64,000 nt of DNA from assembly GCF_054482595.1 (NCBI RefSeq), contig NZ_CM137008.1. The stretch is one strand, 5' to 3'. The notes under the pieces are model-generated. The model saw only the letters and a program-made list of their open reading frames with translations, searched no databases and was not told where the DNA came from. The position numbers and the translations under genes were made by a program. Shown here piece after piece: positions 1 to 49,800 of the stretch. The number at the start of each line of letters is the position of its first letter. Position 1 is the first letter of the stretch.

Positions 1-431
1 AACTGGCTCGTAAAGAAGATATGCAACTGAGTGCTCATATTAACCCAGAGACATTTGACGTTGAGTTAATTGATGAGAAGGGATCTGTCATTAATCGTAA
101 GTTACTATCTGCCGGTGAAAAGCAGATTTATGCCATTGCTATTCTTGAGGCGCTAGCAAAAACTTCTGGTCGTGATTTGCCGGTGATTATTGATACGCCA
201 TTAGGACGTCTGGATTCACAACATCGGGATAAACTAATTAACCATTATTTCCCATTTGCCAGCCATCAAGTGGTGCTATTGTCTACCGATACGGAAGTGG
301 ATGAACGTTATTTTGTTGACCAATTACGTGATGATATTTCTCATGCTTACGAGATAGTATTTAACACGCATACTAAATCATCAGCGTTGAAGCCCGGTTA
401 TTTCTGGGAATTAACTAAGGAGGCTATCTGA
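1..431 (+). CDS. dndD: DNA phosphorothioation protein DndD, C-terminal part (gene starts upstream of window)
   Basis: Frame is open from position 1; translation contains SMC/ABC-type signature LSAGEKQ followed by D-loop-like IIDTPLGRLD, as remembered for DndD C-termini. Stop TGA at 429-431 overlaps the dndE ATG (TGATG). Confidence 0.75.
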   Translation, partial: LARKEDMQLSAHINPETFDVELIDEKGSVINRKLLSAGEKQIYAIAILEALAKTSGRDLPVIIDTPLGRLDSQHRDKLINHYFPFASHQVVLLSTDTEVDERYFVDQLRDDISHAYEIVFNTHTKSSALKPGYFWELTKEAI

Positions 432-787
432 TGCTCCCGAATCGAATGGTGCTGAATCGTCAGACTGAAGAGCAGCTTAAAAGATTGAAAGGGTATACAG
501 GGATCACACCTAATGTCGCTGCCCGATTGGCATTTTTCCGCTCGGTGGAGAGTGAGTTTCGCTATTCATCAGAACGGGATAATCGGAAACTAGATGGTTC
601 GCTGGTGTTGGATAAGATTACGTGGCTGGGGGAGACATTACAGACTACGGAATTGGTATTGAAGATGCTTTATCCGCAGTTAGCTCAGAAGGATATGGTT
701 AAAGCATGGGCTGCGCATGTGGAGGATGGGATTGCGGCGTTAAGGAATCATAAGAGTCTATTAAACTTTATTAAATCAATAGATTAA
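431..787 (+). CDS. dndE: DNA phosphorothioation protein DndE (118 aa)
   Basis: Small protein directly coupled to dndD; motif GITPNVAARLAFFRS resembles the DndE family; size and position are typical for dndE as last gene of dndBCDE. Confidence 0.7.
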   Translation: MLPNRMVLNRQTEEQLKRLKGYTGITPNVAARLAFFRSVESEFRYSSERDNRKLDGSLVLDKITWLGETLQTTELVLKMLYPQLAQKDMVKAWAAHVEDGIAALRNHKSLLNFIKSID

Positions 788-795
788 GAATTTTT

Positions 796-826
796 AGGCC
801 ATCCAAATTAACAATATGGATGGCCT
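796..826. terminator. Perfect 10-bp inverted repeat (aggccatcca / tggatggcct, 11-nt loop) between convergent dndE and DGQHR genes; possible bidirectional terminator or RNA-stabilising hairpin
   Basis: Inverted repeat read directly from sequence; no clean U-run on either side, so terminator function is uncertain. Confidence 0.35.
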
Positions 827-845
827 GAACAAAATTTAGTCAATT

Positions 846-2006
846 TTAAAAATCTGTTTTGACATTTTCGTTTAAATAATCATATATTTTTCGCTGACCC
901 ACAGTTGTTGATGTATACTCTGTATTTTTTGTAAACTCCTCAGGATTCACAGTTTTCAATGCAGAGCACAGCTTTTCAATATTTTCTTTGTTAATTTTAG
1001 GCATGTCCATCAATTTTTTACGTAGAAACTGAAATAATGCAGAAATACCGACAGATCTAACTAACACTGTGCCTTTCTCAATACATACATTAGCCCAAAA
1101 ATGATCTTTTATCGCTGAAAAATAAATTTTCAATATTTGCTCTATCGCCTTATCATTGCCTTTTATATAAAACCATCGCAATGGGCTTTTATCCTTGCTG
1201 TTTTTATTATCAAGCCTGCCCCTTCCTTTTTCTTTTTCATCCGAATCAATTGCATTGATGGTATATCTATCAGCACGAGGGTTTTTAGATATTAGTGATA
1301 ATACACCATCAATAAATACAGACGATGATATAGACCAGTCATTTTCAGTAATTTCATTCAATACTCTATTTTTTAATCGTCTGTAGAAAGGATATTCATC
1401 TGTTTTATTAAATTTCTCACTAAAATATACAGCAAGCAAATCAGGAGGCCAATACTCTCTGGATATATCATCAAGAGAGTATCCAAAGAGTCTATATGCT
1501 AAACTTTTAGGAACTTTTTGTTGGTTAAAATTAATTGTTGAAAATATAGTTGCTTGATTGGATGGTGGTAATGAGTTATAAATTGAACAAGGTAATTGAA
1601 TATCTTTATTCTTAGCATACTTAAATCCTAATAATCTGTGCTGTCCATCGATAATAGAACATAATCTTAGATTTATATTCGGTATTATTATCTTATATAA
1701 TCAATTCTCACTTTTTTTAAACTCCCATTTGTCATCTTCCTTTGCAGGTGTACCATCTTCATTATGATTGACAGAGAGTATGATTGAGTTTGGAAATGCA
1801 GCCTCATCGGAGTCTATGAATTTTGCTATGTCTAAGGCTCTTGGCATAGACTCTTTCCTCTGCACACCTGATATTTCCCCATCATCCATTTCCGCCTGAT
1901 TCACATAAATACATTTCAATAAATCTTCGGCAGACATAACCGTCTGAAAGAATTCGCCGTATGGTTGGGTGACCTTAATTGCATGGATCTCAATAGAATT
2001 AGACAT
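846..2006 (-). pseudogene. DndB-like DGQHR-domain protein interrupted by an in-frame TGA (codon 102, plus-strand 1701-1703); possibly pseudogene, readthrough gene or sequencing error
   Basis: Minus-strand frame is continuous from ATG at 2006 to stop at 846-848 except for one TGA; N-terminal part has DndB-like AIKVTQPYGEFFQTVM and GVQR motifs, and the region just after the stop reads CSIIDGQHRLLGF (DGQHR signature). Very AT-rich. Confidence 0.65.
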
Positions 2007-2525
2007 TTATAGCCCCTCACCTGGCTCATCATTAGAACTCATATTCCTTAATTCATCAGACACTAATGAATCTGGAGTTACAGGGATTTTAAAATCAGGC
2101 TTAACAACGGTAATGGAAAACCATAATATTATAGTTATAATAAGTGATGAAATTAACATGAAATTGACGTCATTTTTTAATCCAAAAAATAAAAAAACAA
2201 ATGATATGAACCATAAAAATATTGAACAAGATATTCTAACTTGTTTACGGTGCCTTTCAGATAAAGAAATAGGATTTTCGTTCTCGTCATCTCTGGATAA
2301 ACACTCCGCGGCTAATACGCCCAATGTGGTAATAATAAATGAAAAAATAGAAAAACCCAACTGCGTATTATCTTTTAAAAATAATGGGCCAATCCATATT
2401 CCGCAGGTTGATACAAATAATGTCACCAAAGATATAAAAATAAATTTTGGCTGAATAATTCTTGGATATAATCCTAAGATATCTTTCCACAAGTTCACCC
2501 AATGTATCATATCATTTCTCGACAT
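2007..2525 (-). CDS. Small hydrophobic protein with about 4 predicted transmembrane helices (172 aa), function unknown
   Basis: ORF with four long hydrophobic stretches; its TAA stop (2007-2009) directly abuts the ATG of the DGQHR gene (translational coupling); AGGG Shine-Dalgarno-like sequence upstream; 37 bp downstream of the dptH stop on the same strand. Confidence 0.5.
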   Translation of the reverse strand: MSRNDMIHWVNLWKDILGLYPRIIQPKFIFISLVTLFVSTCGIWIGPLFLKDNTQLGFSIFSFIITTLGVLAAECLSRDDENENPISLSERHRKQVRISCSIFLWFISFVFLFFGLKNDVNFMLISSLIITIILWFSITVVKPDFKIPVTPDSLVSDELRNMSSNDEPGEGL

Positions 2526-2562
2526 GCTTTTTACCCTAACCTTGTACTATCTACAAAAATAA

Positions 2563-5500
2563 TCAAAAAACAAGCTCCCAAAACGCTCTATCTCGCATCT
2601 TGCTAACCCGCTTATCCCCATCAACATACAGACTGAAATGTTTTTCAAGCTGCCGAATCTGCCCCATTAACGACTCCTGTTCGCCCTTATCATCCACGTT
2701 GAATACAGCCTTGATATCCGCATTTTTAATTTCGGACACACGATGAATAACCCAGGTTAGAATATATGAAGCGTAATTGTTCTCTCCAGTTTTGAAGTGG
2801 GTAATTTCCTGCGTTGACAGGATCGCTCCAACACCATATTCACGACCTTCCTTAAGGATCTTCCTCAGACTGGAAAAGTCCTGGCGCATAAAGTTATCTG
2901 CCTCATCCACCAGAATCATCTTGGTGAGCTGACGATAATCCCCCTGAATCACTGGCTTGCCGCGTTTTTGCATTTGTGCATAAAACAGATCCAGGGTTAG
3001 CGCAACCACCAGGTTTTGAATCTCTGATGAGTAGCCAGCCAATTCGATAACTGTGACACCATCCACCAGATCATACAGACTCGTCATTTTCTCTGGGTCT
3101 GTTTCAAATATCTGAAACCCAGCTAAGTTATAAAGCGCGGCGTACAATGAGTCTTCTTCTACTTTTTCCTGAGCCAGATATCGCTGCCACACATCTTCTA
3201 TGGTCGGTGCAACACGGTTCCAGGTTGAGCGATCATGAGGCACTATTCCTGCTAATTCATAGCACTCCATGATTAGCGTAACCAGTTTCATACGCTGTTT
3301 CACACCCAGGTTATAGGCTTTCCCCATTGTTTCAGAAAATGCGATTGCGGTATGTCTGGGTAACATGGGCATATCACCAAACAGTGACAAAGGGTTATAA
3401 GGTAGTAACGATAATTGATATTTCTTACCGCCAGTAGCCTTCAGAAAAGCCTCGTCCACATAGTCAGATTTATAATCAAAGATCAGTAAACCAATCGATT
3501 TTCCATCAACGTTACAGGATTGGTTACGCATTAATTGTGTCACCAGCGATTTGGTAAATTGCGTTTTCCCGGTCCCCATCGTACCGATGATGCCTGTGTT
3601 GGTATTCATAAACTTCGTGGTGTTGGTCGGTTCCCAGAATAACGGGGTTTGCCGTGTAGCGTCATGACCAAATAATACTTGTAAGGGTACAGTGCTGACC
3701 TCTGGTGTCGGCTTTGGAATATCAGGTCGTGTGTCTGGCGGTGTCGTTACCTGCACTCCCGATGCTGATGGAGATGGGTGCTCATCACTCTCTGGCTTCA
3801 GACGGTATTTATCTGGTACCCGGTAGCGTTCAGCCAATGGCAATTTACCTTCACGGGTAGTGATTAACGAGGATAGTAATGAATAAGGAATTTCGATCTG
3901 TAAGATATTCGCTGTCGTCTCTTTATAGGAGAGATCGAAGCAAGATCCGCTGTCTACATGTGCAACAACAAAGCCATTAGCATAGTCTTTTAACTCACCC
4001 AACTGATAGTCACCGGTCAACCACCATTCGCGGCGATCCAACAGGGGAGCCAGCTTATCACTGTCCAGCACACCGTACAGCTGAAGTTTCTCTACCTGCA
4101 TCAGCACCTGTCGAATAAAGAGCGCGCGATAAAGTTGCGATGCCAGTGTATGCGGCTCCAGAATATCCTGCTGTAAATAACGTTTAAGCTCAGCAGCCTG
4201 CTGGCCCGCATAGTTGTAATCTGGTCGAGCGCCGGTTTTGACTTCCAGCGGCAGTAAATAGAGACGGTTTTCTTTAAAACCAACAAAGAGCACATCATCA
4301 GAGATTGCGCCTTTACGGTACCCCTGTAGATTTCTTGATAAATCGCTTTCCTTCATCTTTAGCCCGACGTTACCAGATACGCGAATCATTTCGGCTACAG
4401 ATAGCGGTACCCAGCAGATATCAGACTCACTCAGCATGGACTGTACAAATTTATACGCGCCAATGATGCCATATTTCTCTTTGCGCTCTTTTTCACTGGA
4501 GCGCAACATCTTCAGCAACCACTCACCGTTAAAAGCATTAAATTCGGCAAGTAGATGCTGGCTATCAACGGCAGATTGCCCGGACTGGCTTTCGGTCTGG
4601 AGCAGGCGGAGGAATAGATCGACCTGCTTCGTTACCGTCACTGCATCGTAGCCTGCACAACTAGTGTACTGATCGGAATAGTGGATCAGCACAACATCTT
4701 TCTGGCTAGTAAAGAAGTCAAGAGTAACTTTAGGGTCAATAATGGTGGTCCAGAGTGCACTGTTGTAAGAATAATTGAGTAGCTGTTTAAAATTGCCGCT
4801 TACGGCCAATCCAATCCCTTGTCCGTGGTATTGACTGTTGCTCTGACGCGCTGGCTGCCACAGGCAGCCCACTAACCGGGCAAGTCGTAGAGCGCAGTAA
4901 GATTCAGTATCAACATTCCGCAGGCCAAACGCGGTAAAGTAAGCATCCCCCTGTGTTTCAGCTCCTTCTCCGGAAATCAGCCCATGACACAGTACACCGC
5001 TGGCAGCATCCTCAATGCGGATCTGGCGGCAATCCACCGGAGCTGTATTGGTGAAAAACGCCAAATGTGCATAGGCCAATTTGTCGCTTTCTGACGGCAG
5101 GACAAATTTGCTGAACGTTAACCGACTGCGTAACAGGTCAATCAGCATATCGGCCTCAGCTCGCCACGCACCGCGGTTCAGGTCAAGGTCGTTTTTAAGC
5201 TGTTCATAGCTGCCACTCTCGGCAAAGCGATCAAACATATTTGGCAGCAGGCGTTCATCGTAGCAATTTACATGCACCGAAATAGCATGCTCTTTTTCCT
5301 GCTTAAAATATTCCACTAACCCCAGAAACAGTTCTTTCGCTGTTCCCTGATTAATAGCATTAATAATCAATGCATTGTTTCCGGGACTCTGAAATAGCCG
5401 GGCGTAGGCTTCGGTAAATTCATTGAGCTTGTCTTTTACCAAACGTTTTACGTAATCGTGGCTCACCTGGCGCTGGGGAACGACATCGATCCAGAAGCGA

Positions 5501-7638
5501 TTTTCTTCCACCGGCTGCAACTGTGCGTATTCGTGTTCACTGTGGTAAACGAATGGCATCAAGCCGGACACCACCAGACGATCAAGCGTAATGGTCGGTA
5601 GTGTGGCAAATGACGCTGAGTCGTATTGTTCCTGCTCTGCGCAGATAGTTTGTACCAGTTGTAAATGGTAGGCCAACACTAGGGGATGCAACGGGGAGAG
5701 ACGTTCATGACTGTCGACATTACAAATACCCAGATGCAGCAGGCGCTTTTCCTGCGCTGTTAACGCTCTGCTCAACTCGATTTGTTGAAGCGCCTGTTCA
5801 AAGGTCGTCACTATATGGCTTACCAGCGCGCAGTATTCTGCTGACCACGATACTAGGCTAGGTAAAGTACCGCAGCGCTGGTAGTAGAGGAATAATTGGT
5901 CGTAGGCGTTATAGAGATCGGGGTGGATGGCAACGAGTTCATCCAGCGCAAACGCGCTATCGTCATCTCCTGTCCCCAAAAGACGTTGATCAACTAATGA
6001 GGCTTCCAGCGCCAGTAACTGCTGGCGAACACCGACAACCTTGTGTTCGGTATTATCAAGAATGATACGACCCTTCAATCGGTTCCAGGACGCATTCCCG
6101 TCTTCTTTGAACAGTTTATTGAAACGACTCTGGTCAAAAAGTAGCGGTAAGGTTAACCCTTCTTCGGCTCCCGGCCCTTCGATATTGAATGCCAGACAAG
6201 AATCACCTGAAACAAGCTTAAATTGGATCAGATCGCTTTGATTTGCCAGTGTTTCAAAATTCACCAATGCATAATGCTGGCAGTCAATATCACCATTTTC
6301 TTCATCCAGTATACAGACTTGGCTACCCGACTCAGCGATTCGTAGTTCGTTGTCTTCGCGTTGGAGTGTGATTTGTGGTTTACCTGGCTCGATACGGAAA
6401 CAATGCTGAATATCGTCTAGCCAGAATTGTCCTTGTCTGACCAGTAACAGGCGGAACTTGTACTCTTCGGCTGAATTATTGCGATTAGTCAGTTCGAGGC
6501 TAAAGAAGCAGGGATTCCCATCGAAAGGAACCGACGCCATAATACGGGAGCTTTTACCCCCTGCACGACTAATTCGCCAGAAACGCTCTTTTTTTAACTG
6601 ACGATGATGCGCAATTTTTATCTGGTTATCCTGAAGATCGTTGCCCTGAAAGCAAAACTCCAGCTCAGTTTGCGATTGTTCGGGTGGTACCTGTACCAGT
6701 AGGCTGATATCGCGCTTGCCTGCTTTACTTGCGCTTTTCGCCCGTTGCCAAATCACGCCATTTTCGACCGTGATATCATCCAGTACCAGTTTTTGTTCGC
6801 GGTTCTGTTCTTTTTCGTTTAGATAAACAGCGAAATCAAGCTCGCGCCAGTCGTCTTTATCATTGAAATGTTCCTGAATAAATTTGGCGCTGAATTCAGT
6901 TAATACGTTCTCCAGTTGCCCACTGTAGCGTTCAACGCTGTCCTCGATTTGACGAAATAACTTCCTGTTTTCATTCAGTCGGGTATGGAGCTGTTTCTGG
7001 CTAAAATTCAGTAGTTCATCATCTTTAAACAGCGATAGCTCGGAGAAATCCAGATTGCCGTCATCCAGCAGGCGATACAACGACGAGAAGCCAAATACGG
7101 TCGCACCTTCATCCAGTACCGTTGTTCGTTGATCCTTTAATAAGCAACGCGACAACTCTGAACGGTTGTTGTCCGTCGTGATCAACTTTTCCAATTCATG
7201 ACTGAAGGTTTCGGGGTGCCAGATAGCTCCCGGTGCCGCGACGTCTTTTGTGCTGTTAATCAGGGTGTCCAGCATGCTGTTATGAATAATCAGCAGTGCA
7301 GTTTTGGCAAACACCCCGCTGCGGCCAGCAACTTCATCGCGTAAATGGGATATGTAGTTTTCCGTGAATGCTGGCGCTGCGGCTCCGTGCAGCACCGGAA
7401 TAAGCTGAATACCATTACAGGAGAGACAGGCAAGGCGCTGCTCTGGCGCAATTTCCAGATGATTGTCACCTGCCAGGTCAACAAAAGCCTGCCAGAGTTG
7501 TAGAGCATTGTCAGGGTCAGGAGATTTAAACTGGTAACGCTCACCAGGTTGAATAATGCCACTAACCCATTCAATAAAGGTTTCCGCCAGATAGGTTTCA
7601 TACTGTTTTACGGACATACACGGCGTCTCCACTGTCAC
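2563..7638 (-). CDS. dptH: DptH/DndH-like large ATPase/helicase-type protein of the phosphorothioate-dependent restriction module (1691 aa)
   Basis: 5076-bp ORF with Walker A (GIIGTMGTGKTQF) and Walker B-like (ILVDEADNF) motifs; third gene of a three-gene operon adjacent to dndDE; gene sizes match what I recall for dptFGH of Salmonella/E. coli dnd islands. Start may be the downstream ATG at 7617. Confidence 0.75.
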   Translation of the reverse strand: MTVETPCMSVKQYETYLAETFIEWVSGIIQPGERYQFKSPDPDNALQLWQAFVDLAGDNHLEIAPEQRLACLSCNGIQLIPVLHGAAAPAFTENYISHLRDEVAGRSGVFAKTALLIIHNSMLDTLINSTKDVAAPGAIWHPETFSHELEKLITTDNNRSELSRCLLKDQRTTVLDEGATVFGFSSLYRLLDDGNLDFSELSLFKDDELLNFSQKQLHTRLNENRKLFRQIEDSVERYSGQLENVLTEFSAKFIQEHFNDKDDWRELDFAVYLNEKEQNREQKLVLDDITVENGVIWQRAKSASKAGKRDISLLVQVPPEQSQTELEFCFQGNDLQDNQIKIAHHRQLKKERFWRISRAGGKSSRIMASVPFDGNPCFFSLELTNRNNSAEEYKFRLLLVRQGQFWLDDIQHCFRIEPGKPQITLQREDNELRIAESGSQVCILDEENGDIDCQHYALVNFETLANQSDLIQFKLVSGDSCLAFNIEGPGAEEGLTLPLLFDQSRFNKLFKEDGNASWNRLKGRIILDNTEHKVVGVRQQLLALEASLVDQRLLGTGDDDSAFALDELVAIHPDLYNAYDQLFLYYQRCGTLPSLVSWSAEYCALVSHIVTTFEQALQQIELSRALTAQEKRLLHLGICNVDSHERLSPLHPLVLAYHLQLVQTICAEQEQYDSASFATLPTITLDRLVVSGLMPFVYHSEHEYAQLQPVEENRFWIDVVPQRQVSHDYVKRLVKDKLNEFTEAYARLFQSPGNNALIINAINQGTAKELFLGLVEYFKQEKEHAISVHVNCYDERLLPNMFDRFAESGSYEQLKNDLDLNRGAWRAEADMLIDLLRSRLTFSKFVLPSESDKLAYAHLAFFTNTAPVDCRQIRIEDAASGVLCHGLISGEGAETQGDAYFTAFGLRNVDTESYCALRLARLVGCLWQPARQSNSQYHGQGIGLAVSGNFKQLLNYSYNSALWTTIIDPKVTLDFFTSQKDVVLIHYSDQYTSCAGYDAVTVTKQVDLFLRLLQTESQSGQSAVDSQHLLAEFNAFNGEWLLKMLRSSEKERKEKYGIIGAYKFVQSMLSESDICWVPLSVAEMIRVSGNVGLKMKESDLSRNLQGYRKGAISDDVLFVGFKENRLYLLPLEVKTGARPDYNYAGQQAAELKRYLQQDILEPHTLASQLYRALFIRQVLMQVEKLQLYGVLDSDKLAPLLDRREWWLTGDYQLGELKDYANGFVVAHVDSGSCFDLSYKETTANILQIEIPYSLLSSLITTREGKLPLAERYRVPDKYRLKPESDEHPSPSASGVQVTTPPDTRPDIPKPTPEVSTVPLQVLFGHDATRQTPLFWEPTNTTKFMNTNTGIIGTMGTGKTQFTKSLVTQLMRNQSCNVDGKSIGLLIFDYKSDYVDEAFLKATGGKKYQLSLLPYNPLSLFGDMPMLPRHTAIAFSETMGKAYNLGVKQRMKLVTLIMECYELAGIVPHDRSTWNRVAPTIEDVWQRYLAQEKVEEDSLYAALYNLAGFQIFETDPEKMTSLYDLVDGVTVIELAGYSSEIQNLVVALTLDLFYAQMQKRGKPVIQGDYRQLTKMILVDEADNFMRQDFSSLRKILKEGREYGVGAILSTQEITHFKTGENNYASYILTWVIHRVSEIKNADIKAVFNVDDKGEQESLMGQIRQLEKHFSLYVDGDKRVSKMRDRAFWELVF

Positions 7639-8923
7639 TCATTCGCTCCACATTTCCCATACGTTCATAAAACGCTACCAGCGTTTGTGCCGACTGGTTA
7701 TCCAGATAAAATCCGCGCTGTTCAAAGCCGCGCAGCAACTCATGCAGGCGTAGTTTGTCATTTTTACCCACAGTGAGATTGGTCAGCAGCAGCAGACGAT
7801 CCTGATTCAGTACCAGTACTTTTCCCGCCCGACCACGTACCTGAATGAAATCGGTGCAGATCTGGGTTTCAAGCTCGTTGATGTATTTCCGGTTAACTGT
7901 CGCACGATCAGATTTCTTATCCTGAAACTGTTCAACAGCAACGGTTAATAATTGTTTAAAAGCTTCTTCCAGCGTAACGGCTTGCGTATACTTCGATGCC
8001 GAAAGCTCGCGTTTTTCGATAAACTCCTGCAAATAATTATTGAGATCTTGCAGTAATTGAGATGAGTTATCAGAAAAATTTAAGCAATCCTGATAGACCT
8101 GCCAGAGTGGACGCTTCTTATCTCCTTTTATTTGTAGAACTTCCAGCGCGGAGAGTATTGGGAAAAGTTTTTCACTTTGACGAGCGAACCACTTATAACC
8201 AAAGCGTTTTATTTGATCCCGTTCAGAACTGGCTTTTTCAGTGTCGAGAATAAAGAAAAGCGACTTACTTTGTGGCTCGCCGTCCTGCCAGTTGTCCAGA
8301 TTGAGCGCTAGCTGGGCACACCAGCTAAAGGCATATAAACGCAGAGTATTAGTCAGTTCTTGTAACAAATATTGAGGGTGTTCTGCCAAAAACGCCAGAT
8401 CAGACTGAAAACAAGTCACCAGATAGGGAAGGTAGGGTTGTTCTTCAGAGAATGGGCCTTTTCCCAATAACTTTATTTTTTCATTGAGCTTATTTAGCAT
8501 TTGCTGCTCAATGAAGTTCAGCTTATCCTGGATAGGATATTCCAAGCTGAAATCTCCCATTAGATTAGCAAACAGAGTGCCAAGGCGTTTATCGGCCATT
8601 GAAGCGCCACTTATTTTTTCGCCATCAAACTGAGCATGAAATAGTAAAAAAAGCGGAGATACACGAAAGATATCTTCACTGGAAAAATACATCCGTTCCA
8701 GTACAGTCCAGAATGCTGGTTCATCAAGCAATTCTTGCAAATGAGCCTTGCAATCATCGCGAAATTGACTGGGAGTATAGGCATCAATTTTACGCTTCAG
8801 GGCGTAACTAAGCACCAATCCGGTGACAAATTGCCAGTTAATATCATTGTTTTTGTTACGTATCGGCAGATAACTATCCAGTTGATTATTACCTACTTTT
8901 AACGTCGTTGCGATAGGGTACAT
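7598..8923 (-). CDS. dptG: DptG/DndG-like protein (441 aa)
   Basis: 1326-bp ORF between dptF and dptH on the same strand, 4-nt gap from dptF stop; size and context match dptG. Confidence 0.7.
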   Translation of the reverse strand: MYPIATTLKVGNNQLDSYLPIRNKNNDINWQFVTGLVLSYALKRKIDAYTPSQFRDDCKAHLQELLDEPAFWTVLERMYFSSEDIFRVSPLFLLFHAQFDGEKISGASMADKRLGTLFANLMGDFSLEYPIQDKLNFIEQQMLNKLNEKIKLLGKGPFSEEQPYLPYLVTCFQSDLAFLAEHPQYLLQELTNTLRLYAFSWCAQLALNLDNWQDGEPQSKSLFFILDTEKASSERDQIKRFGYKWFARQSEKLFPILSALEVLQIKGDKKRPLWQVYQDCLNFSDNSSQLLQDLNNYLQEFIEKRELSASKYTQAVTLEEAFKQLLTVAVEQFQDKKSDRATVNRKYINELETQICTDFIQVRGRAGKVLVLNQDRLLLLTNLTVGKNDKLRLHELLRGFEQRGFYLDNQSAQTLVAFYERMGNVERMSDSGDAVYVRKTV

Positions 8924-8927
8924 TCCA

Positions 8928-10577
8928 CTAACCCTCCATACCGCTAATGGTGATCATGTCGTCGTCCGCTTTAGCGCGATAAACTCGCCGCCCACCAGCA
9001 TAAAACTTGATTTCGCTGCTGGATTTGGCCTGTTCAGTAATCAAATCAACGATTTCGTCCAGTAGAACAATGGCATTTTTATCGTATTTATTGGGGCGAT
9101 AGCCATTGTTTAATTTGTTCAAAAGTTCAAATAAATTAAGTCCGATACGAACTGGTAACAGAGAGTTTTGCCCAACTTTTAAATGCACGTCGAAGCCAGT
9201 AGGGTGGGCCGTATTTTTATTGCGGATGGCCTCCCAGTCAGGTTTCAATTCGACTGGCGCGGTTATTTTTACCCCACCATATTCACCTAAAAAGAACTCT
9301 TCTTTTTGCATACTCAATTCCGGCGCTTTGCGGTTTGCATAGCGCTGAATACCAGCAATAAGTTCGGATGTATAAAACCGGTTCAGTGCTTTTTTCTGCT
9401 CTGAGTCAGCGATGTAATTTTTGTGCAGATGCCAGATTTCTGAATAATGCTCAAATAAAGATTCATTGAAGAATACGGAAAATTTCTGATGATAATTATT
9501 CCCCAGAGATTCATCCTGCAGCAACCAGAAGAGCCGAATTAATGAAGCCGCATCACCCGGATTAACGCACTGGCGATCAAATCTAATGTGTAATGGCGCG
9601 AGTGCAGCTAAAAAATCATCCAGTTCAGGGTCAACCAGGCCCAATTCGTAGCGCAAAATAAACTGATCGATTTCATAGGTGTGCAGCCTAGCAGGATCAA
9701 AATCAGAAACTTTTTTAATCAGGTCGTTTTCTGCCCCAGTGAAAAGATTATCAAATAAATACCCCGGCCCCATAAGCAAATGATGCAGAAAATCCAATAG
9801 AGTTCGGGTTGTCACAAACTGATCTTTAATCAGGCGGGCCTTAAAGAGCTGAGTGATGAGAACATCCTGAACACCCGGCAGACAAAGTAATTTATAGTTA
9901 GCAACTTCTTTCAGCTCAGGGTTAACGGTCTCATCATGTCGAAAAATAAACTGAAACAAATTACTATCATCATTACGGGTTAAATTATCCAGTAATGTTT
10001 TAATAAACGATGAATACTGTTTTTTTTCATTAAACTGGAATTTAGGGTAATGCTCAAAGTCAAAAAAAGAACAATGCCCACTGCGGTATGGGCGGCTTTC
10101 TTCCTGATCTGCTGACAAGAAAGAATCGATCGCAGTGCGGATCGCCAGATGGCATTCAGCACCTTCTCTGGCAAAATTGGCGAGCATCCCGGTATTGATG
10201 CCTATAAGCAAAGGAGATGAGTATTGGTGATGATTGCTAAATAAATCATTTAAAGCATCAATAGCTGATTGCCGGGGAGCAAAGCTGTGTGTTGCATCCA
10301 GATGAAAACTAAAGCGCTGCTGATAACGAGGGTTTGACTTACAACGGGTCAAAATTTCGGACTTTCCATCACCACTACTGCCACACAAAAAGATGATTTC
10401 ACCGGGCTTAGCAACATCCAGATAACGTTGCAGCTCAGTTTCAATTTCTTGTTTAACAAAGAGTTGTTCTTTTAACTGATCGAACTCATCCTTTTGACGA
10501 TGCGTTACCGTGGTTACGGAAAACGAAGATGACTTCGCAAGTACACCCAACGCTTTACGTAATGTGATTGCGCTCAT
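8928..10577 (-). CDS. dptF: DptF/DndF-like P-loop ATPase (549 aa)
   Basis: 1650-bp ORF with Walker A-like motif FLCGSSGDGKSEI; first gene of the operon, preceded by an AT-rich 5' region. Confidence 0.7.
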   Translation of the reverse strand: MSAITLRKALGVLAKSSSFSVTTVTHRQKDEFDQLKEQLFVKQEIETELQRYLDVAKPGEIIFLCGSSGDGKSEILTRCKSNPRYQQRFSFHLDATHSFAPRQSAIDALNDLFSNHHQYSSPLLIGINTGMLANFAREGAECHLAIRTAIDSFLSADQEESRPYRSGHCSFFDFEHYPKFQFNEKKQYSSFIKTLLDNLTRNDDSNLFQFIFRHDETVNPELKEVANYKLLCLPGVQDVLITQLFKARLIKDQFVTTRTLLDFLHHLLMGPGYLFDNLFTGAENDLIKKVSDFDPARLHTYEIDQFILRYELGLVDPELDDFLAALAPLHIRFDRQCVNPGDAASLIRLFWLLQDESLGNNYHQKFSVFFNESLFEHYSEIWHLHKNYIADSEQKKALNRFYTSELIAGIQRYANRKAPELSMQKEEFFLGEYGGVKITAPVELKPDWEAIRNKNTAHPTGFDVHLKVGQNSLLPVRIGLNLFELLNKLNNGYRPNKYDKNAIVLLDEIVDLITEQAKSSSEIKFYAGGRRVYRAKADDDMITISGMEG

Positions 10578-10794
10578 AACTTCATGTTCTCAAAAGTAGG
10601 ATTATACCTATTCTATAAAAGCTATCCGCTGATATCTATAGGCACTTTGAGACATTTATTACGGGCAATTTTAAAATTGTATCTTTTCCATCCGTACACA
10701 AAACACATCCAGAGATGGCGGGGAAAATCCATCTATCAACCAGTTCCACTTTGGAAATTGCTTGATTAGTAGTATCTTAATCAAACACATACGC

Positions 10795-10975
10795 TAAATA
10801 TTACCCCCGATTGATTTTCGCATAGTCAAACAGCGTAATCGATCTCTCCCTATTCGCATCCAGAAAATCAGCCCACCATACTGCAAATCAGCTCGCGCTC
10901 ATCCAGATGTTCTGCCTTATGGATATACGCCCCCTTACCGATGTGACTCATCTGACGTTCAGCCGCTTTATCTCA
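10795..10975 (-). pseudogene. Decayed 3' fragment of a P4-type integrase gene (remnant of a second int copy)
   Basis: About 180 bp with roughly 75-80 percent identity (by eye) to the 3' end of the intact integrase gene at about 13930-14110 (for example gcatccagaaaatc...ttatggatatacgc...ctcatctgacgttca shared); same orientation; 5' two-thirds of the gene absent. Confidence 0.6.
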
Positions 10976-11072
10976 TGTTGTTCTGGTCTCAATACTTCCA
11001 TGCCGTTGCAATTACCTCTTAAACCAGCCCTTACCATTTTTATGGGTACGATAAGAAAACTTTATCGGGCAC

Positions 11073-11103
11073 GATCGATTTTATCGATCGATTCGATCGA
11101 AAA
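11073..11103 (+). promoter_or_regulatory. Cluster of three GATC sites inside tandem tcgatcgat-like repeats, about 90-115 bp upstream of the outer-membrane protein gene
   Basis: GATC at 11073-11076, 11086-11089 and 11095-11098, each inside CGATCG; read directly from sequence. Regulatory role is hypothetical. Confidence 0.3.
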
Positions 11104-11189
11104 CATTCCTTTTACCTTATCTTTTTCATGGTCTTAGAATGAGCAACCCCATTTATCGTTCGGGGAAAGTGATAGCGGAGATGATTGAA

Positions 11190-11930
11190 ATGAATAAGGT
11201 TATTGCGGTTTCAGCGCTTGCCATGGCAGGCATGTTTTCGACCCAGGCTCTGGCTGATGAAAGCAAAACAGGCTTTTATGTGACCGGTAAAGCAGGTGCT
11301 TCTGTTATGTCACTTGCAGACCAGCGTTTCCTGTCGGGGGATGGAGAGGAAACATCAAAATATAAAGGCGGTGATGGCCATGATACGGTATTCAGTGGCG
11401 GTATCGCGGCCGGTTATGATTTTTACCCGCAGTTCAGTATTCCGGTTCGTACGGAACTGGAGTTTTACGCTCGTGGAAAAGCTGATTCGAAGTATAACGT
11501 AGATAAAGACAGCTGGTCAGGCGGTTACTGGCGTGATGACCTGAAGAATGAGGTGTCAGTCAACACACTGATGCTGAATGCGTACTATGACTTCCGGAAT
11601 GACAGTGCATTCACACCATGGGTATCTGCAGGGATTGGCTACGCCAGAATTCACCAGAAAACAACCGGTATCAGTACCTGGGATTATGGGTACGGAAGCA
11701 GTGGTCGCGAATCGTTGTCACGTTCAGGCTCTGCTGACAACTTCGCATGGAGCCTTGGCGCGGGTGTCCGCTATGACGTAACCCCGGATATCGCTCTGGA
11801 CCTCAGCTATCGCTATCTTGATGCAGGTGATAGCAGTGTGAGTTACAAGGACGAGTGGGGCGATAAATATAAGTCAGAAGTTGATGTTAAAAGTCATGAC
11901 ATCCTGCTTGGTGTGACTTATAACTTCTGA
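11190..11930 (+). CDS. Outer-membrane beta-barrel protein, Hek/Tia/Hra-like adhesin/invasin family suspected (about 246 aa precursor)
   Basis: Start chosen at internal ATG 11190 preceded by GGAG at -12; typical signal peptide MNKVIAVSALAMAGMFSTQALA then DESK; alternating aromatic/glycine-rich beta-strand pattern; C-terminal YNF with terminal Phe typical of OMP beta-barrels. Family name is from memory only. Confidence 0.65.
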   Translation: MNKVIAVSALAMAGMFSTQALADESKTGFYVTGKAGASVMSLADQRFLSGDGEETSKYKGGDGHDTVFSGGIAAGYDFYPQFSIPVRTELEFYARGKADSKYNVDKDSWSGGYWRDDLKNEVSVNTLMLNAYYDFRNDSAFTPWVSAGIGYARIHQKTTGISTWDYGYGSSGRESLSRSGSADNFAWSLGAGVRYDVTPDIALDLSYRYLDAGDSSVSYKDEWGDKYKSEVDVKSHDILLGVTYNF

Positions 11931-12103
11931 CGACACTGCTCCTGAACGATAATACGTATATTTAGCAATTAAGATAATTGCGTATCTTCTGCAATTAAAC
12001 AGAAATACCCTGCAGTCTATTACTGCAGGGTTATCTGTTTCACAGATAATTTCTGATTTTTATTATCCTGTTCTCTTCATCATAATGTTGTCGATATACT
12101 CCG

Positions 12104-13603
12104 ATGAATATCAGAAAACTGTTTTGTCCGGGAAACACACCCCGGATTTTATTGTTTTTATTCTTTTTTGTTGTTTCTGCAATAACCACAATTGCATGCG
12201 GATACACTGAGAAGAATGCCACAGGAAATGTGCTGCTTCTGTTTCTCCTTCTTCTCCTTGCACACAGAAATACCCTCACATCCATTACAGCGCTGTTATT
12301 TCTGTTCTGTTGTGCACTGTATGCGCCTGCGGGTATGACGTACGGTAAAATCAACAACAGTTTTATTGTCGCGTTGCTGCAGACCACGGCTGATGAGGCT
12401 GCAGAGTTTACCGGGATGATTCCTGTTTATCATTTTCTGGTCAGTGCCGCGATTCTGGTATTCATGGTGATTTTCTGGCGGACACACCACCGCGGTCACC
12501 GTAACTGGCTGGCACTGCTGCTATTCGTATTATGCTCTGTAAACAGCTGGCCGTTGCGGATGGTTAAAGGAACTGTTGTGGGGACAACTGACACATTGCG
12601 TGAAATGCAGCGTTATAAACAACTGAGTCAGCACGGGGCTGATAACTGGAAAATCCTGCCGGGTGTGCCGTTGTATGACACGATTGTTATCGTTACTGGT
12701 GAGAGTGTGCGCAGGGATTATATGTCGGTATATGGCTATCCCGTGCCAACCACGCCGTGGCTGAATACTGCTCCCGGTTTATTTATTGACGGCTATACAT
12801 CGACAGCAGCCAGTACCGTACCTTCCCTGAGCCGGACACTGATTTATGACTATGAGCAGAACCCTGACTCCGGCAACAACGTGGTGGCGCTGGCAGCAAA
12901 AGCAGGATACAGCACATGGTGGATATCCAATCAGGGAAAACTGGGAGAGCATGACACACGCATCTCTGTTATTGCTTCTGATGCGGAGCATACCGTTTTC
13001 CTCAAGAAAGGCAGCTTCGCTTCCCGTAAAACGGATGACATGTTGTTGTTACAGGAAACAGAACGTGCGCTGGCGGATAAATCCTCGCCGAAGGTGATTT
13101 TCCTGCACATGATTGGCTCTCATCCGAATCCGTGTGACCGACTTAACTCCTGGCCGAATTATTACCTGGAGCAGTATCCCCGAAAGATTGCCTGTTACCT
13201 CGCCAGCATCAGTAAACTGGATAACTTTCTCGGTCAGCTTGATGGTATCCTTCGCCGGCATTCCCGTCACTTTGCAATGCTTTACTTTTCTGACCATGGG
13301 CTGTCGGTCAGCGACAGTGCTAATCCTGTTCATCATGATGGTCATGTGCAGGGGGGCTACAGCGTTCCCCTGATTATTACCGCCAGTGACATCACGTCTC
13401 ATCAGTCCGTCAGCAGGAAAATCAGTGCCCGTAATTTCGCAGGCATTTTTCAGTGGCTGACCGGTATTCGTACCGAAAATATAACGCCATTCAATCCGCT
13501 GACAGACGAAGATAATGAACCCGTTATGGTTTTTAACGGAGAGAAAAATGTGCCGGCAGACAGTCTGAAACCGCAGCCACTTATTCTTCCGGACCACAGG
13601 TAA
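12104..13603 (+). CDS. Inner-membrane sulfatase-family / phosphoethanolamine transferase-like protein (YhbX/YjgX-like, 499 aa)
   Basis: N-terminal hydrophobic helices followed by a periplasmic domain with motifs IVTGESVRRDY, HMIGSHPNP and LYFSDHG, typical of the alkaline-phosphatase-superfamily PEA transferases; position next to the leuX integrase matches the K-12 yjgX locus. Confidence 0.6.
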   Translation: MNIRKLFCPGNTPRILLFLFFFVVSAITTIACGYTEKNATGNVLLLFLLLLLAHRNTLTSITALLFLFCCALYAPAGMTYGKINNSFIVALLQTTADEAAEFTGMIPVYHFLVSAAILVFMVIFWRTHHRGHRNWLALLLFVLCSVNSWPLRMVKGTVVGTTDTLREMQRYKQLSQHGADNWKILPGVPLYDTIVIVTGESVRRDYMSVYGYPVPTTPWLNTAPGLFIDGYTSTAASTVPSLSRTLIYDYEQNPDSGNNVVALAAKAGYSTWWISNQGKLGEHDTRISVIASDAEHTVFLKKGSFASRKTDDMLLLQETERALADKSSPKVIFLHMIGSHPNPCDRLNSWPNYYLEQYPRKIACYLASISKLDNFLGQLDGILRRHSRHFAMLYFSDHGLSVSDSANPVHHDGHVQGGYSVPLIITASDITSHQSVSRKISARNFAGIFQWLTGIRTENITPFNPLTDEDNEPVMVFNGEKNVPADSLKPQPLILPDHR

Positions 13604-13926
13604 TCATATATGGCAAACTGTAATACAGTCTCTTGTACTGAAAAGGATTCTGTATAGAATAGAACCTGTATTCATATCAGCACAAGGGACCACCAAATCC
13701 CGGCAACATTCCTTACGTCAGTTATCCCGCATCACCCTGTGGGTGCGGGATTTTTTATGATGTTTCTTTTTATTGAATATATATAAATAACGAATAACTG
13801 CGGATTCTGATAATCCACCTGCAGGGAGCAATCCGGTAAACATTTAATACATCAGTTAATATCGTTTTGCCTTTTTAACAAAGAAAATATTCATGGAGTA
13901 AGTTCCCGGGCATTTGCCCGGGATGA

Positions 13927-15192
13927 TTACTGTTTTAATGGATTATTAATCTTTGCATATTCAAATGGACTGATAAATTTTTCTCTGTTTGCATCCAGAA
14001 AATCGGCCCACCATTGTAGCATCAAGCGGCGTTCTTCCAGATGCTCTGCTTTATGGATATACGCGGCCCTCACTGAATTTCGCTCCATGTGGCTCATCTG
14101 ACGTTCAACAGCATCACGAGACCACAAACCTGATTCGACCAATGAACTACAGGCCATTGTTCGAAAGCCATGACCACAAACCTCTACTTTTGTATCATAC
14201 CCCATGACCCGTAACGCACTATTTACCGTATTCTCACTCATGGGTTTGTGCGAATCGTGATCACCAATAAATATCAAGTCATGGGCCCCACAAAACTGTT
14301 TTATCTGCTTTAAAATTGCAAGAGCTTGCGTTGAAAGAGGCACTAGATGCGTTGTACGCATTTTTGAGCCTCTATGGGAATGTTTCACTCCAGGAATAGG
14401 CTCCCGCTCCGGTGGGATAGTCCATATAGACGCTTCGAAATCGATCTCTGACCAACGAGCAAAACGCAGCTCACTGGACCGAATAAAGATCAGCAAAGAG
14501 AGTTCTGTCGCCCATCGGGTTAGCGGCCTACCAGTATAGCTATCTATTTTTGTAAGCAACTCAGGGATGCGCTTTAATTCAAGCGCGGGACGATGTTGTC
14601 GATTACAGGAAGCAACCGCCCCAGCCATCTCTTGTGCCGGGTTATAATCAATTAACCCACTTTGCACTGCATAGCGCATGATGGCTGTAGTGCGCTGCTG
14701 AAGACGAGCGGCCACTTCAAGACGTCCAGACATTTCTACGGCCTTAATGGGTGCTAATAAATCTCGAGTTTTTAACTCAGCGATATTACGTTCACCAAGC
14801 GCTGCAAAAAGATTATCTTCCAGACTTTTTAGCACACGATGGGCGTGATCTTCAGACCACTTTTTATTGGTGCCATGCCACTCAATCGCGACTTCTTTAA
14901 AGGTTCGTGCTTTACTCTGTTCAACCTTATCATTTTTCTTTTTGTCTCCCGGATCGACGCCATTCGCAAGCAGCTTACGCGCCTCGTCACGACGTACTCT
15001 GGCATCCGCTAGTGTGATTTCAGGATAAACCCCAAGTGCCAGCATTTTTTGCTTTCCCTCATAACGGTACTGCAAACGCCAGTACTTAGAACCATTTGGA
15101 TGGACAAGCAGATGCATACCGCCACCATCAGTCAGCTTATATTGCTTATCCGTTGGCTTGGCTGCTCTGACTTTGATATCTGTTAATGCCAT
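13927..15192 (-). CDS. intB: P4-type tyrosine recombinase/integrase (IntB-like, 421 aa)
   Basis: Translation MALTDIKVRAAKPTDKQYKLTDGGGMHLLVHPNGSKYWRLQYRY... is a typical P4-family integrase N-terminus, with C-terminal catalytic region motifs (HGFR, Y near the C-terminus); start is adjacent to the 3' end of tRNA-Leu. Confidence 0.85.
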   Translation of the reverse strand: MALTDIKVRAAKPTDKQYKLTDGGGMHLLVHPNGSKYWRLQYRYEGKQKMLALGVYPEITLADARVRRDEARKLLANGVDPGDKKKNDKVEQSKARTFKEVAIEWHGTNKKWSEDHAHRVLKSLEDNLFAALGERNIAELKTRDLLAPIKAVEMSGRLEVAARLQQRTTAIMRYAVQSGLIDYNPAQEMAGAVASCNRQHRPALELKRIPELLTKIDSYTGRPLTRWATELSLLIFIRSSELRFARWSEIDFEASIWTIPPEREPIPGVKHSHRGSKMRTTHLVPLSTQALAILKQIKQFCGAHDLIFIGDHDSHKPMSENTVNSALRVMGYDTKVEVCGHGFRTMACSSLVESGLWSRDAVERQMSHMERNSVRAAYIHKAEHLEERRLMLQWWADFLDANREKFISPFEYAKINNPLKQ

Positions 15193-15207
15193 GCGTATTC
15201 CCTCCCT

Positions 15208-15265
15208 GTTGGTACAAGCATTATCGAACCGGAAATACCATCATCTGTACCAACATATGTTGGTA
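15208..15265 (-). promoter_or_regulatory. Repeated TGTTGGTA motif: perfect 18-bp palindrome taccaacatatgttggta (15248-15265) plus a third copy (15208-15217) upstream of int; candidate integrase/regulator binding sites in the int promoter-att region
   Basis: Motifs read directly from sequence between the int start codon (15192) and the leuX terminator. Confidence 0.3.
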
Positions 15266-15341
15266 GATGTACGTTGATATCGGTTGACCTTGAGAGAGTT
15301 AATATAGCGGGAAAGGTAGATAAACACTGGATTTCAGGCAT

Positions 15342-15366
15342 AAAAAAAGACCTCAGTTGAGGTCTA
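15342..15366 (-). terminator. Rho-independent terminator of leuX
   Basis: Hairpin agacctcagttgaggtct followed on the minus strand by a U-run (plus-strand A7 at 15342-15348), immediately 3' of the tRNA. Confidence 0.6.
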
Positions 15367-15378
15367 TTTACATACTTT

Positions 15379-15463
15379 TGGTGCCGAAGGCCGGACTCGA
15401 ACCGGCACGTATTTCTACGGTTGATTTTGAATCAACTGCGTCTACCGATTTCGCCACTTCGGC
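15379..15463 (-). tRNA. leuX: tRNA-Leu (anticodon CAA), leuX
   Basis: Minus-strand 85-nt sequence GCCGAAGTGGCGAAATCGGTAGACGCAGTTGATTCAAAATCAACCGTAGAAATACGTGCCGGTTCGAGTCCGGCCTTCGGCACCA, recognised as leuX with encoded CCA; P4-type integrase immediately 3'. Confidence 0.9.
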
Positions 15464-15658
15464 ACTGAAGAGGTATGCGGAAAACGTTGTGGATTATACC
15501 TGTCGCACGCCACCATGCAAGCGCCAGCTTGCTCGCACCTCGCTAAGTGCTGAAATTTTCAGCATTGCATACAGCGATGTGTAACCTTTGTCACACTCCA
15601 GGCACCCCGCCCTGCCATGCTCTACACTTCCCAGACAACACCAGAGAAGGACCAAAAA

Positions 15659-16678
15659 ATGTCGATGATAAAAAGCTATGCCGCAAAAGAAGCAGGCGGC
15701 GAATTGGAAGTTTATGAGTACGATCCCGGTGAACTGAAGCCATAAGATGTTGAAGTGCAGGTGGATTACTGCGGGATCTGCCATTCCGATCTGTCGATGA
15801 TCGATAACGAATGGGGATTTTCACAATATCCGCTGGTTGCCGGGCATGAGGTGATTGGGCGCGTGGTGGCACTCGGGAGCGCCGCGCAGGATAAAGGTTT
15901 GCAGGTCGGTCAGCGTGTCGGGATTGGCTGGACGGCGCGTAGCTGTGGTCACTGCGACGCCTGTATTAGCGGTAATCAGATCAACTGCGAGCAAGGTGCG
16001 GTGCCGACGATTATGAATCGCGGTGGCTTTGCCGAGAAGTTACGTGCGGACTGGCAATGGGTGATTCCACTGCCAGAAAATATTGATATCGAGTCCGCCG
16101 GGCCGCTGTTGTGCGGCGGTATCACGGTCTTTAAACCACTGTTGATGCACCATATCACTGCTACCAGCCGCGTTGGGGTAATTGGTATTGGCGGGCTGGG
16201 GCATATCGCTATAAAACTTCTGCACGCAATGGGATGCGAGGTGACGGCCTTTAGTTCTAATCCGGCGAAAGAGCAGGAAGTACTGGCGATGGGTGCCGAT
16301 AAAGTGGTGAATAGCCGCGATCCGCAGGCACTGAAAGCCCTGTCGGGGCAGTTTGATCTCATTATCAATACTGTGAACGTCAGCCTCGACTGGCAGCCTT
16401 ATTTTGAGGCGCTGACCTATGGCGGTAATTTCCATACAGTCGGTGCGGTTCTCACGCCGTTGCCGGTTCCGGCCTTTACGCTGATTGCGGGCGATCGCAG
16501 TGTCTCTGGCTCTGCTACCGGTACACCTTATGAGTTGCGTAAGCTGATGCGCTTTGCCGCCCGCAGCAAGGTTGCGCCGACTACCGAACTGTTCCCGATG
16601 TCGAAAATTAACGACGCCATCCAGCATGTGCGCGACGGTAAGGCGCGTTACCGCGTGGTTCTGAAAGCTGACTTCTGA
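15659..16678 (+). pseudogene. ahr: Zinc-dependent aldehyde reductase Ahr (YjgB) with in-frame TAA at codon 29 (15743-15745)
   Basis: ATG at 15659 gives [28 protein letters not shown] then TAA, then the frame continues [16 protein letters not shown]... through the full MDR-family alcohol dehydrogenase to 16678; the ORF track only picks up from GTG 15755. Confidence 0.65.
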
Positions 16679-16807
16679 TCTCTTTGCCGGGTGCCTGTCG
16701 CCCGGCACTTAAATCTCTTTGGAAGGCGTCTCGCAATCTGCTGAATTTAGCGGTGAAGAGTGCGCAGCCGTTGCCTATACTCCAGGCAGGAAACTGGAGG
16801 AAATCTC

Positions 16808-18310: not shown

Positions 18311-18311
18311 G

Positions 18312-18362
18312 TCAGGCGAGATTTGTCTTTGCCTGATGCGACGCTGGCGCGTCTTATCATGC
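18312..18362. repeat. REP (repetitive extragenic palindromic) element
   Basis: gcctgatgcgacgctggcgcgtcttatcatgcc-type palindromic unit after yjgR. Confidence 0.5.
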
Positions 18363-18470
18363 CCACCCCACTGCAATATATTGAATTTTAATTATTTTTC
18401 AGGAATGAACGAAGCACACTTTGCTAACAATAATAAAGGGAGCTTTCGCTCCCTTTATTCGTTCATTTGG

Positions 18471-20916: not shown

Positions 20917-22431
<1,515 letters not shown>

Positions 22432-22439
22432 TTGCGTCA

Positions 22440-22735
<296 letters not shown>

Positions 22736-49684: not shown

Positions 49685-49800
49685 TTTGCCGGATGCGGTG
49701 CACCTGTAGGCCTGATAAGACGCATCAAGCGTCGCATCAGGCACTATGCTCAAATGCCGGATGCGGCGTGAACGCCTTATCCGGCCTACGCACACTATAT
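49685..49800. repeat. REP elements downstream of yjgA
   Basis: gccggatgcggtgcacctgtaggcctgataagacgcatcaagcgtcgcatcaggc and gccggatgcggcgtgaacgccttatccggcctac units. Confidence 0.5.

Follow-up and report, generated by a model that had tools for sequence, protein, structure and literature searches.

Results

Genes at the leuX locus

The leuX gene, encoding tRNA-Leu(CAA), occupies positions 15379–15463 (minus strand) of the 64,000-nucleotide stretch of contig NZ_CM137008.1 (assembly GCF_054482595.1) analysed here, which we call the window. Positions 1–15378, adjoining the leuX 3′ end, carry a phage-type integrase gene and genes of a DNA phosphorothioation (PT) system. The original prediction, made without database searches, had taken this segment for part of an island whose proximal end lies at the leuX 3′ end (15379) and whose distal end lies beyond the window. 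Our analysis indicates that the segment very probably belongs to a composite genomic island of the P4/CP4 type, ~77.5 kb in length, and makes up the fifth of it that adjoins leuX.

The leuX gene is identified by both ARAGORN and the Rfam tRNA model (59.4 bits), and it is the sole tRNA gene that ARAGORN calls in the 64-kb window. It is an intact integration target, and the empty-site comparison described below places the start of the accessory DNA right at its 3′ end. The Rfam scan of the window reveals no tRNA fragment besides leuX and no other structured RNA in the island part. The last 24 nucleotides of leuX, read on the plus strand, form the proximal attachment core, TGGTGCCGAAGGCCGGACTCGAAC (15379–15402). 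The G+C content is 0.436 in positions 1–15378 and 0.515 in positions 15464–64000, and the island part thus has the atypical base composition of a genomic island.

An island-borne arm (15193–15378, minus strand) separates leuX from the integrase gene. In a terminator scan, the arm includes a terminator-like hairpin (15365–15348) followed by a T run. It is homologous in strains K-12, 1916D18, and EC24, and in EC24 the alignment reveals compensatory changes in the hairpin. The strain with an empty site, XH990, has a different sequence at this position. The hairpin is now the predicted terminator of leuX.

The integrase gene (13927–15192, minus strand) starts 186 bp from the leuX 3′ end. It is intact and encodes a P4-family tyrosine integrase of 421 residues with the Pfam domains Arm-DNA-bind_3, Phage_int_M, and Phage_integrase, and the R, HxxR, and Y motifs are readable in its translation. 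In K-12, its ortholog is the pseudogene intB, and the DNA is 97% identical to the intB–leuX–ahr region of that strain. The next gene encodes a phosphoethanolamine transferase (12104–13603, plus strand; Pfam Sulfatase and EptA_B_N), which is named peaX in strain NADC 6564 (PMC6408774) and whose K-12 ortholog is the pseudogene yjgX (91% DNA identity). It is followed by the gene for a beta-barrel outer membrane protein (11190–11930, plus strand; Pfam OMP_b-brl), which is called an adhesin in PMC6408774 and some relatives of which are annotated tia/Tia in other genomes. Beyond it, a second P4-type integrase has left a 166-bp remnant (10801–10966, minus strand), the decayed C-terminal part, which is annotated in E. 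coli SM107 as a frameshifted integrase fragment. Its translation reads AAERQMSH..AYIHKAEHLDER, with stops.

The remaining genes belong to the PT system. The PT-dependent restriction genes dptF (8928–10577), dptG (7598–8923), and dptH (2563–7617) together span 2563–10577 on the minus strand, and all three score above the cut-offs of the NCBIfam equivalogs for dptFGH (TIGR03238/TIGR03236/TIGR03237). At the other end of the segment lie dndE (431–787, plus strand; Pfam DndE) and, according to the SM107 annotation, the 3′ end of dndD (1–431, plus strand). The rest of dndD, dndB, and dndC lie beyond the window. With these three read from the SM107 annotation, the full set of dndBCDE and dptFGH genes that makes up a Dnd–Dpt restriction-modification system is present.

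Between dndE and dptH is a slot of low G+C content (788–2562, minus strand; 0.32). It contains a gene for DNA phosphorothioation-associated DGQHR protein 1 that is split in two (846–1691 and 1701–2006, minus strand) and an AgrB-like open reading frame (2007–2525, minus strand). The corresponding profile, TIGR04172, covers only profile positions 103–381 with a score below cut-off, and the gene is unbroken (1161 nucleotides) in strain NDM5. As judged from annotation names, the contents of the slot vary across genomes with dnd genes, comprising elsewhere either an ATP-dependent nuclease and a DUF262 protein or an AIPR-family protein. The slot has the appearance of a small hotspot for cargo within the Dnd–Dpt system.

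The gene content is as listed in the original prediction, which had missed only the integrase remnant. A Pfam scan finds no transposase domain in the ten main open reading frames of positions 1–15378. In addition, no insertion sequence (IS) fragment is detected in this segment by similarity to the IS-rich upstream DNA of SM107, to K-12, or to the rest of the window.

A distal copy of the leuX 3′ end in SM107

A base-by-base comparison of the 64,000 window positions with E. coli SM107 (NZ_CP130667.1) reveals only four single-nucleotide polymorphisms (SNPs), at 9797, 10988, 15743, and 15746. All four are clustered in a 6-kb region around leuX and the island head, and the other 58 kb are identical. 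The upstream DNA of SM107 is therefore a close proxy for the sequence beyond window position 1.

A search of the 78 kb that precede the window in SM107 for similarity to the leuX region yields a single significant match. It is an identical stretch of 18 nucleotides, CGAAGGCCGGACTCGAAC, with the same orientation as leuX (L002:15876–15893). With the adjoining nucleotides, the repeat reads TGGTG-CGAAGGCCGGACTCGAAC (L002:15871–15893) and reproduces 23 of the 24 terminal nucleotides of leuX, one C being deleted. Shuffled versions of the locus yield no such match, so none is expected by chance. Its end is situated 62,107 bp to the left of the first window position. Measured between the starts of the two repeats, the island of SM107 spans 77,508 bp (~77.5 kb), and its overall G+C content is 0.471.

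In the window itself, leuX is the only copy. Searches with a 30-mer and a 16-mer, each with up to 3 mismatches, match leuX alone, as do indel-tolerant searches with an 18-mer (up to 2 errors) and a 24-mer (up to 4 errors). A blastn-short search with 15330–15470 returns within 1–15378 only same-strand chance matches of 9–10 nucleotides, with E values of at least 16. A shorter island bounded by a degenerate leuX repeat, especially in 10967–11138 beside the integrase remnant, was considered and rejected, as these mismatch, indel, and blastn-short searches find none there. The repeat is thus present at both ends of the island in SM107, the same core is present in NADC 6564, and no second copy is found inside the window.

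These results support a proximal end at the 3′ terminus of leuX, with an uncertainty no larger than the 24-nucleotide repeat, a distal end beyond the window, and a length of ~77.5 kb. We infer that the source of the window shares the arrangement of SM107. Its distal core, TGGTGCGAAGGCCGGACTCGAAC, is expected ~62.1 kb upstream of the window in the SM107 form of the island or ~23.7 kb upstream in a 39-kb form (described below).

As to the SNPs themselves, the one at 9797 is synonymous in dptF (TTG vs CTG, Leu261). Those at 10988 and 15746 seem to be private to SM107, since the base of the window is shared by NADC 6564 at the two positions, by strain W2-5 at 10988, and by XH990 at 15746.

An empty site in near-isogenic genomes

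We reconstructed the predicted empty site by joining the 471 bp left of the SM107 distal repeat to leuX plus 472 bp of the window, and used the construct as a query against all complete E. coli genomes. The junction is found in one piece in 36 genomes, with 16 at 99.9% identity among the matches listed. In XH990, the gene order is nanC, nanM, nanS′, a PT-dependent endonuclease gene, a helicase gene, a methyltransferase gene, a SNF2 gene, leuX, ahr, and yjgR, and the genes of this region carry the same protein accessions as in SM107. The left flank of XH990 has no mismatch to the SM107 distal flank in 3 kb, and its right flank has a single mismatch to the window in 3 kb, at 15743. The unoccupied site is thus broken exactly at the repeat, and an exact junction with identical flanks indicates that the 77.5 kb are present or absent as one block ending in the 24-nucleotide core. 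The predicted empty site having been found in near-isogenic genomes, the island is a clean case of base-exact boundaries.

Strain 1916D18 was also considered as an empty site. It was rejected because it matches just 50 bp beside leuX and its site is occupied by a BREX island and another truncated integrase.

In SM107, the methyltransferase gene of the SNF2–methyltransferase–helicase cluster that borders the island is in two pieces (309 + 2760 nucleotides; L002:9449–12569). The gene is intact in XH990 (3120 nucleotides; L011:10051–13170).

Taken together, the boundary claims of the original prediction hold. ARAGORN, Rfam, and the XH990 empty site agree on the proximal end; the empty site, the low G+C content, and the gene content agree that 1–15378 is accessory; and the statement that the window contains no distal leuX repeat is borne out by all three types of search. 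It had argued for an island longer than 15.4 kb and had suggested extending the sequence upstream, searching for a direct repeat, and comparing with an empty leuX site. Each of these checks turned out in its favour: the island continues in SM107, a 23/24-nucleotide copy lies at its far end, and the predicted junction exists. Its remark that no transposase or IS element is seen applies to 1–15378 and does not extend to the unseen 62 kb, where SM107 has ~20 transposase genes or fragments.

The same island in NADC 6564 and relatives

The O157:H7 strain NADC 6564 (86-24) is 99.5% identical to window positions 1–20000, with 94 differences in 20 kb. An insertion element of 39 kb with a 56-bp direct repeat has been described in this strain (PMC6408774, 2019). 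The order is that of the window: leuX, int, peaX, the adhesin/outer membrane protein gene, the integrase remnant, dptFGH, and dndEDCB, followed by proQ and a CP4-like tail. Here proQ is intact, and the tail comprises Gp2-like, AlpA-like, GTPase, antirestriction, RadC, cbtA/antitoxin, and DUF957 genes.

NADC 6564 has the same 23-nucleotide distal core as SM107, 39,117 bp from the leuX end, so that the island measures 39.1 kb compared with 77.5 kb in SM107. The outer flanks differ: a resident truncated integrase in NADC 6564, and the SNF2–methyltransferase–helicase cluster in SM107. The same core against different outer DNA in two backgrounds argues for site-specific integration over homologous replacement. 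In addition, the sequence just outside the distal core of NADC 6564 is identical to the arm beside leuX, and this identity together with the core end accounts for the reported 56-bp direct repeat.

The difference in length is due to an extra ~38.2 kb of IS-rich cargo at proQ in SM107 and W2-5. This block carries autotransporter genes, sodC, dcuC, a malic enzyme gene, ugpB, and others. A 195-bp proQ/FinO-like stretch is duplicated at its two ends (L002:34540–34734 and L001:22915–23109), which is too long for a target-site duplication. W2-5 is identical to the window over 10400–15378 and has the IS-rich upstream structure in common; it has a deletion in ahr and diverges right of leuX, and was therefore rejected as the source of the window.

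Iodine-sensitive (PT-modified) DNA and Dpt-dependent restriction have been demonstrated for the NADC 6564 element (PMC6408774).

Proposed integration at the leuX 3′ end

The window integrase shares 59.5% identity with phage P4 Int over 97% of its length, and a P4-family integrase gene thus lies beside the tRNA gene. The annotated 20-bp attP core of phage P4, TGGTGCCGAAGGCCGGACTC, is the leuX 3′ end and equals the first 20 nucleotides of the 15379–15402 core. It is located 151 bp from P4 int, compared with 186 bp in the window, on the same side. The leuX specificity of a P4-like integrase has been shown for the island PAI II536 (PMC3202238).

We propose that the P4-family integrase recombined an element-borne core, mimicking the last 24 nucleotides of leuX, with the chromosomal leuX 3′ end. 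Recombination of attP with attB within these 24 nucleotides would regenerate the tRNA gene. In this way leuX would have been kept intact, now followed by an island-supplied terminator and integrase gene, and a 23-nucleotide copy of the core would have been left at the far end of the island.

The distal cores of SM107, NADC 6564, E24377A, 042, and B4103-1 (L002:15871–15893, L009:6262–6284, L012:3372–3394, L013:3371–3393, and L014:3372–3394) share the 1-nucleotide deletion (TGGTG-CG) and lie against two different outer flanks. A deletion shared against two flanks indicates that most of the distal copy is probably element-derived. This suggests that strand exchange may be confined to the last 5–6 nucleotides of leuX, the tRNA always being rebuilt from host DNA. 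The unseen part of the island in SM107 contains an AlpA-family gene, and excision of the island by the products of this gene and the intact int is plausible, judging from the gene content.

The distal copies of E24377A, 042, and B4103-1 also have a G-to-A change like that just past the annotated P4 core (CTCAAAC).

Composite origin of the island

The integrase remnant (10801–10966) is 72% identical to the window's own int and 82% identical to the full-length leuX integrase of EC24, in a match contiguous with dptF. In EC24, the order is leuX, full-length int, dptF. The closest relative of the remnant thus leads directly into dptF, indicating that the dpt–dnd module was formerly equipped with a leuX integrase of its own. 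In K-12, only window positions 12417–15378 are shared, as intB, an IS2 insertion, and the pseudogene yjgX.

These observations could mean that two elements lie in tandem. The leuX island would then be just a 4.4-kb islet of the integrase, transferase, and outer membrane protein genes (~10967–15378), and the dpt–dnd genes would belong to an older, independent element with a decayed integrase. Besides the remnant and the EC24 arrangement, the distribution of the two parts speaks for such a division: K-12 and numerous other genomes have the integrase–transferase head and lack dnd, and the dnd/dpt part is present in 227 of the 5426 complete E. coli genomes, compared with 4291 in which part of the head region matches (a figure that includes paralogous integrases). 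However, no leuX core, even a degenerate one, is present at or near the joint. Relative to the near-isogenic XH990, the whole 77.5 kb form one block bounded by core repeats. Moreover, the fused block of transferase gene, outer membrane protein gene, remnant, dpt, and dnd recurs at 99.5% identity in the 39-kb element of NADC 6564, and at 98.6% over the dnd/dpt part in NDM5. In NDM5 it is located at the selC locus (L007:19803–24668), in the order transferase gene, outer membrane protein gene, integrase remnant, dptFGH, dndEDCB, behind a selC-type integrase and a truncated intB-like integrase. The location at selC indicates that the composite block has moved between tRNA-gene islands, and its presence in both NADC 6564 and NDM5 indicates that the fusion is old and that the block travels as a unit. 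With no repeat at the joint, the joint is not a present boundary. We therefore consider two separate elements very unlikely; a tandem origin is probably correct for the history of the island, but not for where it ends today.

In the composite island, the head consists of int, the phosphoethanolamine transferase gene, and the outer membrane protein gene, the first two corresponding to intB and yjgX of K-12. The defence module consists of dptFGH and dndBCDE, with its own leuX integrase reduced to the remnant at 10801–10966. Beyond the window follow the 38-kb IS-rich cargo and the CP4-like tail, in which the AlpA-family gene is accompanied by genes for a GTPase, antirestriction, and RadC and by cbtA/cbeA. 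We infer that a deletion joining two islands, in tandem or recombined, created the internal joint.

For annotation, it follows that the dnd and dpt genes of the window belong to a 77.5-kb leuX island, the content of which is best read from SM107 or a similar genome. Beyond the window, this content includes autotransporters, sodC, dicarboxylate metabolism genes, the toxin–antitoxin pair cbtA/cbeA, and many IS elements.

Site-specific integration or remodelling of the interval

A further reading is that no discrete element exists. The interval between leuX and nanS would have been remodelled by homologous recombination and IS elements, and the distal repeat would be the fossil of an unrelated earlier event. 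The interval is certainly variable, ranging from ~12 kb in XH990 and ~15 kb in 1916D18, where it contains BREX, to 40 kb in K-12 and 89 kb in SM107, with many left break points among genomes and many IS elements. In addition, the same 1-nucleotide-deleted distal junction is found in the diverged islands of E24377A, 042, and B4103-1, and an old junction may outlast an exchanged interior. However, both ends of the XH990 empty site are precise to the nucleotide and the flanks are identical, a pattern characteristic of site-specific gain or loss. The island of NADC 6564 has the same core with another flank, the sole homology at the joint being the 23–24-nucleotide core. We judge this too short for ordinary homologous recombination, and it coincides with the P4 attP core. 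Remodelling without a discrete element is thus highly improbable.

The island is also not a P4 satellite as judged by annotation names, no profile search for such genes having been made: no gene of the 77.5-kb SM107 island is named in the annotation as a P4 replication, capsid-size, or late-control gene. The replication and helper-exploitation genes of P4 comprise the alpha primase gene, sid, delta, psu, and cos.

Several points weigh against a composite, site-specifically integrated ~77.5-kb island. The distal end and the length are read from SM107, not from the source of the window, and related strains have the 39-kb form, so the true length could differ. The ~20 IS-related genes in the unseen part point to heavy later rearrangement, and the island need not move as a unit. 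The 1-nucleotide deletion in the distal core might reduce or block further excision. Excision, a circular form, and integrase activity are predictions from gene content. Finally, K-12 shares the integrase–transferase head and has no distal leuX repeat within 50 kb of its leuX region. A repeat-bounded structure is thus not universal at the locus, and K-12 cannot be used to locate the far end.

A neighbouring PT-dependent endonuclease gene

An intact gene annotated as encoding a phosphorothioated-DNA-binding endonuclease lies beside nanS in SM107 (L002:4532–5404), ~73.5 kb left of window position 1. It is also present at L009:3923–4774 and L011:5134–6006, and thus occurs both in SM107 and NADC 6564, which have dnd genes, and in the island-free XH990. 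The protein of SM107 has the same accession as that of XH990, and the gene is intact in NADC 6564 too. The distance from the distal end of the island to this gene is ~10.5 kb in SM107 and ~1.5 kb in NADC 6564. The N-terminus of the protein matches the sulfur-binding domain (SBD) of ScoMcrA, and an HNH domain is present. The gene is full length in 1706 of the 5426 genomes, and K-12 retains a 247-bp remnant.

EcoWI, an endonuclease of the SBD–HNH type, cleaves GpsAAC/GpsTTC DNA, and plasmids that bear the dnd genes of E. coli B7A are strongly restricted by it (PMC7461809). With a resident SBD–HNH gene and a dnd island, a PT writer and a possible PT reader coexist in one locus. NADC 6564, with an intact endonuclease gene, has experimentally PT-modified DNA (PMC6408774). 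Should the endonuclease be expressed and read the motif of this Dnd system, the cell would have to possess an undescribed means of avoiding self-restriction, a prospect that we regard as unlikely. If real, the avoidance could take the form of silencing, diverged specificity, or protection by the Dnd/Dpt proteins.

The core side of leuX

Right of leuX, ahr (15659–16678, plus strand) has a TAA stop at codon 29, caused by T at 15743. SM107, XH990, and NADC 6564 have C at this position (CAA, Gln), indicating that the ahr pseudogene is specific to the source of the window. In strain 368_BP0078, idnK–idnDOTR (GntII) lie between ahr and yjgR, and in K-12 idnK and idnD flank ahr. The idn genes are absent from the corresponding interval of the window (16679–16807), indicating that the core side of leuX is polymorphic too.

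Rfam matches are found in the core part of the window (21478–21672, 22506–22676, 39417–39532, 49709–49786, and 55949–56027). They represent Ysr276 (181 bits), naRNA4 (four copies), and the Mg riboswitch upstream of mgtA, and none is in the island.

Comparison with known systems

The window resembles phage P4 in its integrase and attachment core, and the island itself is a CP4-like cryptic element rather than a P4 satellite. PAI II536 of E. coli 536 carries haemolysin and P-related fimbriae as cargo, and is not known to carry a defence system. It is described as having a P4-like, leuX-specific integrase, a restored tRNA gene, and flanking direct repeats (PMC3202238).

In K-12, the leuX region is annotated 'cryptic prophage PR-Y', and the product line of insO names the 'KpLE2 phage-like element'. 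Its leuX, intB, and yjgX correspond to window positions 12417–15378 with 91–97% identity. There, intB and yjgX are pseudogenes split by IS2, and the cargo comprises fec, sgc, yjh, and others, with no dnd or dpt genes.

Reports from 2009 and 2015 (PMC2663466, PMC4373003) document dnd-bearing islands at a leu tRNA gene in E. coli and Salmonella, including those of E. coli B7A, 55989, and UMEA 3176-1 (PMC4373003; dndDB, PMC2663466). Like the window, the published islands have the integrase gene first and dptFGH upstream of dndBCDE, with 1–3 small genes in between. They are mosaic, measure 53–59 kb, and contain transposases (PMC4373003, PMC2663466). The dnd/dpt DNA of B7A is ~78% identical to that of the window, and its dndE–dptH slot is annotated as encoding an ATP-dependent nuclease and a DUF262 protein. 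The island type, the target, the integrase family, and, in NADC 6564, this very island in its 39-kb form are already published.

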